This document shows positions 31,938 through 38,350 of a DNA stretch of 51,139 nucleotides, piece by piece (position 1 is the first letter of the stretch; every line of letters starts with the position of its first letter). This DNA comes from a virus. Its lineage: Duplodnaviria; Heunggongvirae; Uroviricota; Caudoviricetes. A program made the position numbers and the translations under genes. The notes beneath the pieces were generated by a model. The model made no database searches and was not told the origin of the DNA. It saw only the letters and a list, made by a program, of their open reading frames with translations. The stretch lies in IMG/VR virus record IMGVR_UViG_2744054912_000002, one strand, 5' to 3'.

Positions 31938-31959
31938 TGATCTTTAAAACAGAGAGGGT

Positions 31960-31994
31960 AAAAATAAAAACATGCCGCAAGGGGCGCGGCATGT
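31960..31994 (-). terminator. Rho-independent terminator for the leftward hsd operon
   Basis: catgccgc-aaggggc-gcggcatg with T-run on the - strand. Confidence 0.55.
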
Positions 31995-32187
31995 ATCCAA
32001 TCAATCACAGGAGCTGAAGATATGAACACGGCATTCTAAATCATTATGACCGCGATCTATTTCTGGCTGTTCTCTATCACTTTTGGCAGCATTGTCGCGC
32101 ATAGGTAAGGGGAGTATATTAGCCATTTGGAACCCCACGGTCTCTTGCGGGTTTAATTAAGAACCCGCAAGAAAAACACGAATTGGG

Positions 32188-35425: not shown

Positions 35426-36652
35426 TTAATTACTGACAGTTTCAGGTTTCGGGAAACTGAACAGTAAATCACGGTAGTATTCGTATTGTTTCTGGCGCAA
35501 CTCGATTTCACGCGGGAGACCTTCAGTGATGGAGTTGGTCAGGGTGTCGAATTTATCGAGTATTTCGACAATGCGAGCTTGTTCTTCTGAAGGTGGTACA
35601 GGTATTGGGAATTTTAAAAACATTGGTCGACGAAGTGAGGTAACCGATGAACTTACTGATGCTTTTTGAATATAGGTAAAAAAATATGCTGTTATATAGT
35701 GATATACAAATCGCGGATTCATAAATGCATTTGGGACAATACGATATGCTCTCTGATGCAAAGCATATTTACCTTTAGCGTAATGAAATACCTTCCCCAC
35801 CCCGGCACCATCTCCAGCTGTAATGATTGCTGTTTCATCAAAATCAAATACATTTAACTTTAATGGCTCACGTCCACGTGCATAAAAAATATATTTGCCA
35901 TGTTCTATAGCATCTTGCGTATCATGGTTACCTGTTCCTATAACAGCCACTTCCCCCAAAGTCTTCCACTCAACCTCACCCTCTTTAAAACTCAACAACT
36001 GGTCACGATAGTAGTTGTACTGTTTTTTACGCATGTTAAGCTCAGCGGTAAGCTCAGCGGTAAGCTCAGCGGTAAGTGCAGTAAATTTATCCAGAATCCG
36101 AACGATTTCAGACTGGATGGCAAGGGATTTCTCCGGAATATCCGGGCAGGGGATGGGGATTAAGAGCTTTTTTAGGTCGCCCATTGGTAGACTAATTACC
36201 GGGTTGCCGACAATTTTTTTGCTATAGTCTTTAACTATTTTACTTGATTGTAATAAATACGATAAAAATCTAGGCGCAATTTTTTCCTTAATTGGTTTGA
36301 TAGTGTAAACGCCTTCTTTGATATTCCAATTTATAGGATTTTCTTCAATTACCGCGATGCGTCCAACCGTGCCGGTTCCGGAGAACAATATATCTCCAGC
36401 TTCTAAATTAGAACGACCATTTATTATTTTTAATGCTCTATCATTTACTCTGTCTGTTTTATCAAGAAAGACAACTTTGCCATTCTGGATCTCACGAACA
36501 GTTACGTAATATCCTTGGGCATCTAATGTATTTAAGCTAAAATTTTGGCGTGGGTTCAATCCCGTTTTTAAGGAATGGATAACTTCTCCCAACATCTTCC
36601 ACTCAACCTCAACCCCATCCAGCAATTTTCCCAGATAACTTAACTCGCTCAT
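35426..36652 (-). CDS. hsdS: Type I restriction-modification specificity subunit HsdS (type IC)
   Basis: 408 aa; two target-recognition domains separated by central conserved region PIPCPD...[30 protein letters not shown]. Confidence 0.95.
36040..36075. repeat. Three tandem 12-bp repeats encoding (TAEL)3 in the HsdS central conserved region
   Basis: gctcagcggtaa x3 on + strand (ttaccgctgagc on the coding strand). Confidence 0.9.
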
Positions 36653-38211
36653 TTTTGCACCTCGCAGCCTTCAATTTCAGCCACAATCGCATCAATATCT
36701 TTACGCAACTGGTCGATTTTGCTAACCGTAGTTTTAAGCTCTGCATTTAGCTCAGCAATATTGATAATTTCGCGGTTATCTTTCGCTTCTACATAGCAGC
36801 TCACCGACAGGTTATAGTCATTAGCGACAACGGTCTCAAACGCGACAGATTTCGCCAGATGAGCAACATCTTCCTTGCTGGCAAATACCTGCATAATCTG
36901 TTCGATATGGGCATCGGTCAGGATATTGTTGTTAGTCTCTTTTTTGAACAGTTCGCTGGCGTCAATAAACTGAACTTTGGTATCCGTTTTATGTTTAGAC
37001 AGCACCAGAATATTTACGGCAATGGTGGTGCCAAAGAACAGGTTCGGTGCCAGTGAAATCACGGTTTCGACATAGTTATTGTCAACCAGATACTGACGGA
37101 TTTTCTGCTCCGCGCCGCCACGGTAAAAAATGCCCGGGAAGCAGACAATCGCAGCACGACCTTTGGCAGAAAGATAGTTCAGCGCATGTAATACAAACGC
37201 AAAGTCAGCTTTGGATTTGGGGGCCAGAACGCCAGCCGGGGCAAAACGTTCATCGTTAATCAGCGTCGGGTCATCGCTGCCAATCCATTTCACCGAATAC
37301 GGCGGGTTAGAAACGATGGCATCAAACGGTTTTTCATCTCTGAAGTGCGGCTCAGTCAGCGTATTGCCCAGCTTGATATCAAACTTGTCGTAGTTGATGT
37401 TGTGCAAAAACATGTTCATACGCGCCAGGTTATAGGTCGTATGGTTGATTTCCTGACCAAAAAAACCTTCTTCGATGATATGGTCATCAAACTGTTTTTT
37501 AGCCTGCAACAACAGCGAACCAGAACCTGCTGCCGGGTCGTAGATTTTGTTAACATGGGTCTGCCCGTGCATAGCCAGTTGTGCAATCAGCTTAGAGACG
37601 TGCTGCGGTGTAAAGAACTCGCCGCCTGACTTACCAGCATTCGCCGCATAGTTAGAAATCAGGAACTCATAGGCATCGCCGAACAGGTCAATCTGATGTT
37701 CGTTAAAGTCGCCAAGCTTTAACCCTTCAACCCCTTTCAGAACCGCAGCCAGGCGGGCATTTTTATCCTTAACGGTGTTACCCAGGCGGTTACTGGTGGT
37801 ATCGAAATCAGCAAACAAACCTTTGATGTCAGCTTCTGAAGGGTAACCGTAAGCAGAACTTTCGATAGCAACGAAGATGCTGTTTAAATCTGCATTTAGT
37901 CTGTCATTGGTATTTGCTTTCGCCGCTACGTTGCAGAAAAGCTGACTGGGGTAGATGAAGTAACCTTTGGTTTTGATGGCATCGTCTTTAATGTCATCAG
38001 TAATTACGCTGTCATCCAGTTTCGCATAACAGATACTGTCATCACCGGCTTCAATATAGCTGGAAAAATTTTCGCTGATAAAACGGTAGAAAAGTGCGCC
38101 CAGAACGTATTGCTTAAAATCCCATCCATCGACCGAACCCCTGACATCGTTAGCAATTTGCCAGATTTGACGATGAAGCTCTGCACGTTGTTGAATACTT
38201 GTCATTTTCAT
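36649..38211 (-). CDS. hsdM: Type I N6-adenine DNA methyltransferase HsdM
   Basis: 520 aa; NPPY motif, AdoMet-binding region; 4-nt overlap with hsdS. Confidence 0.95.
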
Positions 38212-38350
38212 CCACTTATTTCAGGCTTATGTAATTGGATGTGATTCTACAGCAAATTGGATGCTTTAGCAGTTCGGACATTAGGCTACGAATGACCTGC
38301 CTAGAGGTTTGTTAAGCCGCAAAGTGCTGGTGCTTTATGCCTGTGAAGTT

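Follow-up and report, generated by a model that had tools for sequence, protein, structure and literature searches.

The question raised by this locus is what occupies the interval between the pap and phd genes of a P1-like genome, and by what route it was acquired. The DNA analysed here, referred to as the window, is a stretch of 51,139 nucleotides (nt) of the IMG/VR virus record IMGVR_UViG_2744054912_000002 (Caudoviricetes). Judged from gene content and order, the element that hosts the locus is the near-complete genome of a P1-like phage-plasmid (Punavirus). In place of the genes found at this position in phage P1, it carries three minus-strand genes, hsdM, hsdS and hsdR, which read as an intact type IC (EcoR124-family) restriction-modification (R-M) system. 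The explanation that we favour, with a probability of roughly 0.88, is that the phage-plasmid carries this system as accessory cargo in its variable region between pap and phd, the system having been swapped in by homologous recombination.

The hsd genes and their specificity subunit

32113-38311, minus strand: hsd cassette, 6199 bp, with no P1 counterpart; it stands in for P1 84483-87969 (pmgT to humD)
36649-38211, minus strand: hsdM, 520 amino acids (aa), N6-adenine methyltransferase subunit (TIGR00497, 3.9e-194)
35426-36652, minus strand: hsdS, 408 aa, specificity subunit (Pfam Methylase_S, two stretches)
32188-35304, minus strand: hsdR, 1038 aa, translocase and endonuclease subunit (TIGR00348, 1.1e-229)

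A first-pass annotation, made by reading the letters alone, had proposed three co-oriented minus-strand genes of 520, 408 and 1038 aa that together form a complete type I system of the EcoR124 (type IC) family. Open reading frames (ORFs) of exactly those sizes and strand are present, and all three genes are full-length, with family matches far past chance. The interval given at that time, 31938-38350, does hold the cassette, but its actual limits, 32113-38311, lie slightly inside. The Pfam domains matched are HsdM_N, N6_Mtase, Methylase_S, HSDR_N, SWI2_SNF2, T1R_D3-like and EcoR124_C, and the PADLOC models matched are those for a type I MTase, Specificity and REase. The set has the make-up of a type I R-M system, namely a gamma-class HsdM, an HsdS with two target recognition domains (TRDs), and an HsdR which combines a PD-(D/E)xK nuclease with a superfamily 2 (SF2) motor. 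The hsdM and hsdS genes overlap by 4 nt and a gap of 121 nt separates hsdS from hsdR. Type IC loci have this order, hsdM-hsdS-hsdR, in which hsdMS forms a unit and hsdR stands apart, the separate hsdR promoter being here a candidate at the level of consensus. The G+C content of the three genes is 39–47%, and that of the flanks about 46–51%.

Membership of a type I family rests on subunits being interchangeable and on cross-hybridisation, and sequence identity mirrors this definition. HsdM aligns over residues 1-520 to residues 1-520 of EcoR124II HsdM (PDB 7bst_D) with only 4 substitutions in 520, and the match to HsdM of EcoKI (type IA) reaches 66 bits only. HsdR residues 1-1038 align to 1-1038 of EcoR124I HsdR (PDB 2w00), and over the 968 residues displayed the two differ at about 16 positions (~98% identity). 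The C-terminal EcoR124_C domain (PF12008, 8.7e-72) was found at residues 728-1031, with the profile covered whole. Solved structures thus exist for HsdR and HsdM at 98–99% identity. It is this near-identity of both subunits to the archetypes, along with EcoR124_C and the TAEL-repeat central region of HsdS, that bears out the assignment to the EcoR124 family. The first-pass annotation had named inactivating lesions as an objection to its claim. None of the three genes has a frameshift or a stop codon, and the catalytic residues are all conserved: motif I DPAAGSG and motif IV NPPY are both intact in HsdM, as are the nuclease triad D151/E165/K167, the QxxxY motif, the Walker A motif GSGKT and DECH in HsdR.

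36162-36581, minus strand: TRD1, the N-terminal target recognition domain of HsdS, variable between alleles
35561-35955, minus strand: TRD2, the C-terminal target recognition domain of HsdS, shared with the allele P0019
36038-36073, minus strand: three tandem 12-bp repeats encoding TAEL three times in the central conserved region (from the translation and a repeat search)

HsdS differs in this respect from the other two subunits, as its match to EcoR124 HsdS (7bst_A) is confined to the N-terminal, central and C-terminal conserved regions. The central motif quoted in the first-pass annotation (PIPCPD...) is present in the translation. As is typical of type IC, there are three TAEL repeats encoded by three 12-bp DNA repeats, and a sister allele with two repeats occurs naturally. 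This 404-aa allele (P0002) is otherwise identical to the 408-aa form and is the commoner of the two, being found in 143 contigs. Neither TRD1 nor TRD2 has a match in EcoR124 HsdS or in hsdS of the phages vB_EcoM-673R5 (673R5) and phi456. On the other hand TRD1 recurs in the allele P0039, there at the C-terminal position, and P0019 has TRD2 in common with the window HsdS and a different TRD1. Such shuffling of TRDs among partners and positions is ordinary type IC modularity. The number of TAEL repeats, two or three, distinguishes the N6 spacer of EcoR124I from the N7 spacer of EcoR124II (PMC3874165), and a role for the repeat number is also given in PMC12707154. The three repeats in the window HsdS therefore predict an N7 spacer. 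Since both TRDs are unlike those of EcoR124, the specificity would differ from that of EcoR124I/II and the target would not be GAA(N6/7)RTCG. A literature search gave nothing usable on the recognition sequence of this hsdS allele.

Junctions with P1 and occurrence of the cassette

31415-31918, plus strand: pap (3'-phosphatase), left neighbour; ORF with Pfam HAD_PNKP, collinear with P1 pap
31921-31937, plus strand: C1 operator Op88 (OpmgT) with overlapping PpmgT promoters; exact match to P1 84293-84309, ATTGCTCTAATAAATCT (from the P1 annotation)
38388-38989, plus strand: phd-doc addiction module (phd at 38388-38609), right neighbour, 98.7% identity to P1 phd-doc

In a blastn comparison the window is collinear with P1 (NC_005856) 53412-94800 followed by 1-2472, at 93–98.6% identity along the window with the exception of a few variable blocks. 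The collinear part includes par, rep, the morphogenesis genes, pac, c1, lox-cre and phd-doc. On the left of the cassette the P1 match ends at window 32112, which corresponds to P1 84482, and on the right it resumes at window 38312, corresponding to P1 87970. The P1 interval between pap and phd contains pmgT, pmgU, pmgV, upfM/N/O, hot, lxr and humD, all of which are absent from the window. The idea that cargo had replaced pmgT-humD between pap and phd, for which an alignment to P1 was proposed as the check, is thus borne out as exactly that swap, with breakpoints at 32112/32113 and 38311/38312 and with no canonical P1 gene in the interval. The P1 record itself notes homology to 'sequence downstream of EcoDXXI hsd locus' for 84263-84482 and to 'R124/3 sequence downstream of hsdR' for 84399-84482, and it gives 87969-88647 the label 'sequence upstream of EcoDXXI hsd locus'. 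The window junctions coincide with the limits of those annotated homologies within one base. The cassette therefore has the P1 flanks known from such loci, with phd-doc upstream of hsdM, the Op88 region downstream of hsdR and fixed limits of homology. An article by Tyndall et al. (1997, Mol Microbiol 23:729) reportedly concerns, according to its title as given in two citing reviews, type IC hsd loci flanked by P1 DNA.

How sharply these boundaries are shared with other elements bears upon the route of exchange. P1, P7, RCS47 and JL22, each of which has a different cargo, diverge from the window at one and the same left base. On the right they diverge at the 3' end of humD, P1, P7 and JL22 at 38312 and RCS47 at 38306. 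The left junction lies directly after Op88, the PpmgT promoters, a hydrophobic leader ORF and a Shine-Dalgarno sequence. The first-pass annotation had remarked on the lack of obvious flanking direct repeats and of an integrase. No direct repeats or terminal inverted repeats were found at the cassette junctions (32113 and 38311), and the ORF list has no integrase, transposase or recombinase in or beside the cassette. A shared left boundary without repeats and without a recombinase fits an exchange of cargo modules by homologous recombination in the conserved flanks. The two flanks also differ in their identity to P1, which is 98.6% on the left (14274-32112) and 92.8% on the right (38312-43546, phd to pacB). 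This points to different histories of the two sides relative to the reference P1 and is consistent with recombination at the cassette boundary.

The short leader ORF (32023-32108) was observed between PpmgT and the start of the variable region. It is hydrophobic, has GGAG ahead of it, and is kept in P1 (MNTAFKIIMAAIYFWLFSITFGGIVAHG), where the reference record has no annotation for it. In JL22 (gp98) and phi456 (Orf75) a hypothetical ORF of 135 nt is annotated across the stretch. In the window, the reading frame of the leader meets a TAA stop at codon 6, and translation from an internal ATG could yet give a 20-aa peptide.

The arrangement is already known. It was reportedly described in 1997 and is flagged in the P1 reference record, and the hsdS allele is already in databases. 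Eight regions of P1-like phage-plasmids are listed as highly variable, and the pmgT-humD interval is among them as 'variable region 8' (PMC9603915). A pap-hsd-phd query of 7.3 kb is covered to at least 80% in 480 PLSDB plasmids and the left junction itself, to the same extent, in 258. The complete canonical P1 interval was found in 4 plasmids only, so that the pap-hsd-phd form is far commoner among sequenced plasmids. The plasmid pLR-13_1 (AP027478.1, IncY, 140 kb) is 99.9% identical to the window over 31400-38700 and 99.95% identical over 31000-39500. Among 5426 complete E. coli genomes, 1293 have detectable hsdS sequence of type IC-like kind. R-M systems reportedly rank among the functions that phage-plasmids and plasmids exchange most often (PMC10879196).

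The phages 673R5 and phi456 carry an hsd cassette at the same position as the window. Unlike the window, they have other hsdS TRDs and damaged genes. In 673R5 both hsdR and hsdM are split. In phi456 (10095-11362 of the stretch examined) a 'putative baseplate hub protein' is an IS5-family DDE transposase, and next to it a 'hypothetical protein' of 96 aa is the N-terminus of HsdS, cut off from the rest. The phi456 hsdS is therefore insertionally disrupted and mis-annotated. The two extra ORFs between hsdM and hsdS of phi456 were considered as a prrC-like embedded defence gene and rejected, since they are the transposase and the severed 5' part of hsdS.

Transcription signals and competing explanations

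31970-31994, minus strand: intrinsic terminator, likely that of hsdR, with a 10-bp stem, 6 G-C pairs and a TTTTTATTTTT tail
32143-32172, no strand assigned: palindrome with 11-bp arms, inside the cassette, starting 16 nt downstream of the hsdR stop codon
35305-35425, minus strand: hsdS-hsdR intergenic region, with a candidate hsdR promoter from 35398 to 35369 (TTAACA-18-TATTTT)
38212-38311, minus strand: cassette-specific region, presumed hsdMS promoter region, with a -10-like TAGAAT at 38249-38244, divergent from Pphd

If the genes act as their relatives do, the translationally coupled hsdM and hsdS would give an M2S methyltransferase, which would add N6-methyladenine (m6A) marks to the two strands of a bipartite target whose spacer is N7. 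HsdR, probably expressed from a promoter of its own in the 121-nt gap, would join it to form R2M2S, and this complex would translocate and cut DNA with unmodified targets. By such cutting the lysogen and its prophage would be protected against incoming phages and plasmids. The hsdR promoter in the gap is a candidate proposed from its hexamers, and the gap has no prrC-like gene. The region ahead of hsdM, 38212-38311, has no counterpart in P1 or beside the chromosomal hsd genes of E. coli E2348/69, and hsdM and Pphd diverge across about 176 bp.

At the other end, the terminator and the 11-bp-arm palindrome that had been reported on the left are both real. The terminator is an intrinsic one of the minus strand (31994-31970), folds at -18.8 kcal/mol (z -4.6) and lies in the shared P1 flank, being conserved in P1. 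The palindrome forms a stable hairpin on both strands, at -27 kcal/mol with context (z -3.6 and -4.7). As the terminator of hsdR it was rejected, because a U-tract is absent on both strands and the terminator scan made no call there. The retained PpmgT promoters, which C1 represses through Op88, lie some 220–270 nt past the hsdR stop codon and point at the 3' end of hsdR, and no plus-strand terminator was found between these promoters and hsdR. Because PpmgT is kept intact and converges on hsdR in this way, restriction could depend on the state of the prophage. Release of PpmgT on inactivation of C1 at induction might then send antisense or convergent transcription into hsdR and lower HsdR, sparing the rapidly replicating and under-methylated phage DNA. 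We hold this to be decidedly unlikely. If true, it would be a built-in, lysis-coupled switch of restriction alleviation, common to all type IC loci with the same P1 flank.

Several observations weigh against an intact and functional cargo system. A consensus promoter scan did not rise above the shuffled background (10 sites against 12.5 expected), and it gave no good sigma-70 site upstream of hsdM. In HsdS, the stretch PDNPEK of the central conserved region, which is otherwise invariant, has its Asn replaced by Ile. The phage backbone shows some decay, with a nonsense codon in pmgS and a truncated ref next to IS26. Owing to this decay the element may be under relaxed selection, though the hsd genes are without lesion. 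It could be argued from the HsdS change and the backbone decay that the cassette is a decaying or modification-only remnant, in which methylation may persist and restriction has been lost through substitutions that inspection cannot detect. The 16 or so HsdR substitutions relative to EcoR124I and the broken copies in 673R5 and phi456 would agree with that. However, the reading frames and catalytic residues are preserved as described above, the substitutions are scattered and mostly conservative, and the E2348/69 cassette, with 97.8% DNA identity and the same hsdS allele, is likewise intact. A remnant is thus quite improbable. It is still less probable that the cassette was placed by dedicated mobility, such as transposition, an integrase or site-specific insertion, in place of homologous exchange. 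The base-precise sharpness of the junctions and the site-specific integrase that adjoins the E2348/69 copy are what one would expect of it, but the terminal repeats and the recombinase are missing from the cassette, and the left boundary right after the conserved leader and Shine-Dalgarno sequence is also used by the unrelated cargo of P1, P7, RCS47 and JL22. Moreover, the chromosomal copy has in common with the window only the stretch from the hsdR stop to the hsdM start and not the cassette ends. We regard dedicated mobility as highly improbable. Homologous exchange would have taken place in the Op88/pmgT leader on the left and in Pphd-phd-doc on the right, both on arrival of the cassette and in its movement between elements.

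A different matter is whom the cassette serves. Its main selected role could be the benefit of the element itself, through stabilisation together with phd-doc, exclusion of P1-like elements and plasmids, or epigenetic marking switchable by the TAEL repeats. The cassette is tightly linked to the addiction module, the same TRD pair is found naturally with two and with three TAEL repeats, and the view of mobile-element R-M systems as selfish poison-antidote modules has been discussed (PMC10879196). Against this, type IC systems can become established in naive cells without killing them and show restriction alleviation (PMC12707154), which argues against strong post-segregational killing, and a 12-bp repeat in 2–3 copies is not a high-frequency phase-variation tract. 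Defence would in any case not be excluded by such roles, and a main role of this kind is unlikely. The intact type IC system carried as exchangeable cargo remains our preferred explanation. A suitable annotation would be a type IC (EcoR124-family) hsdMSR cassette that occupies variable region 8 of a P1-like phage-plasmid. On this reading lysogens should restrict unmodified DNA and bear an extra m6A motif, which would be relevant to phage therapy as well as to transduction and the uptake of plasmids by the host strain. No new biology is claimed. The useful gain lies in the base-precise boundaries of the module and in the left boundary common to unrelated cargoes.

The backbone and known type IC systems

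Away from the cassette, a number of departures from P1 were observed. The parB/parA region (5718-8093) has about 64% identity to P1 or no match, its neighbours being at 97%, and this indicates a partition (incompatibility) allele other than that of P1. Between pacB and c1 (43547-45271) there are an icd-like ORF and a 370-aa antirepressor with ORF6N and ANT/KilAC domains, which are 70–80% identical to icd/ant1 of the P1 immI region. The module amounts to a second, diverged ant module, and in the phi456 record a gene 'Ant2' is annotated directly ahead of c1. The pmgS gene (30080-31249) ends at a TAA (31247-31249) made by substitution, without any indel, and encodes 389 aa as against 420 aa in P1. 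As pmgS is among the genes that match P1 full-length in all 54 surveyed P1-like phage-plasmids (PMC9603915), its shortening suggests that the phage may be morphogenetically impaired. On the right, P1 homology ends inside ref at P1 2472, leaving ref truncated (window 49313-51139). The segment beyond is IS26-associated, is 100% identical to plasmid NZ_CP116153.1 and is frequent on E. coli plasmids. It contains on the minus strand (49500-51017) a gene for a 505-aa PAS-HAMP-MCP protein (Aer-like chemoreceptor). This gene was considered as a sign that the window enters the chromosome, and that idea was rejected since the segment is a common plasmid one. The right end is probably the edge of an IS26-bounded accessory/resistance region that replaces the mat/res-mod side of P1.

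The dmt gene (13020-16307, plus strand) encodes 1095 aa as against 754 aa in P1, owing to an in-frame insertion of 341 aa (13251-14273) that is absent from the reference P1. The first residue of the insertion is Cys (CFTAGH...), its last two are His-Asn (...VVHN), and the residue after it is Cys. It contains Hint and LAGLIDADG domains and is placed exactly at the catalytic GTPC|QAFS (PCQ) motif of the Dmt domain for C5-cytosine methylation. Features of this kind are hallmarks of class-1 inteins, and the insertion is a candidate for one with a homing endonuclease. It occurs at about 99% identity in RCS47, in the laboratory P1 record OP279344.1, in Ro157c2YLVW and in 126 PLSDB plasmids. Among the listed feature names of the records with the insertion none carries an intein label (dmt or Dam-family methyltransferase only), and a literature search found no published description of a dmt intein.

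Returning to the hsd cassette, its closest counterparts are the archetypal type IC systems EcoR124I and EcoR124II (plasmids R124 and R124/3). These have the same gene order hsdM-hsdS-hsdR, near-identical HsdM and HsdR, and the same HsdS conserved regions and TAEL repeat, whereas both recognition domains are unrelated. R124/3 also has P1-derived DNA downstream of hsdR, as here, but the recorded P1 homology covers 84399-84482 only. In the window, by contrast, the left flank is complete as far as pap and beyond, with the remainder of the phage. The EcoDXXI system of plasmid pDXX1 has the setting in common with the window. According to the annotation of the P1 record its hsd genes lie between the P1 Op88 region and phd-doc, with limits at P1 84482/87969 that equal the window junctions. 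EcoDXXI is however borne on a conjugative plasmid, and the cassette of the window on a near-complete P1-like phage-plasmid genome.

Like the window HsdS, EcoDXXI and EcoprrI each have three TAEL repeats (PMC3874165; PMC12707154). EcoprrI is the type IC system of the chromosomal prr locus of E. coli and has the anticodon nuclease gene prrC embedded in it (PMC12707154), whereas the hsdS-hsdR gap in the window spans only 121 nt and has no extra gene. One database annotation labels the hsdS of pLR-13_1, which is the window allele, as 'EcoprrI subunit S'.

The same hsdS allele, with the same TRDs and three TAEL repeats, is found in the chromosome of enteropathogenic E. coli (EPEC) E2348/69 (HsdS WP_001293053.1). 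At the DNA level the window hsdS is 99.9% identical to hsdS of both E2348/69 and pLR-13_1. The E2348/69 copy (4764-10783 of the stretch examined) matches the window only over 32189-38208, at 97.8% identity, a span bounded by the stop codon of hsdR and the start codon of hsdM. It is without P1 flanks, its homology ends 1–3 nt from the ends of the coding region, and both regulatory flanks differ. Such a boundary is unusually coding-region-precise. The chromosomal copy belongs to an island and has as neighbours an integrase, McrBC and a phosphorothioate-dependent restriction gene, whereas the copy in the window lies between pap and phd-doc of a P1-like phage-plasmid.

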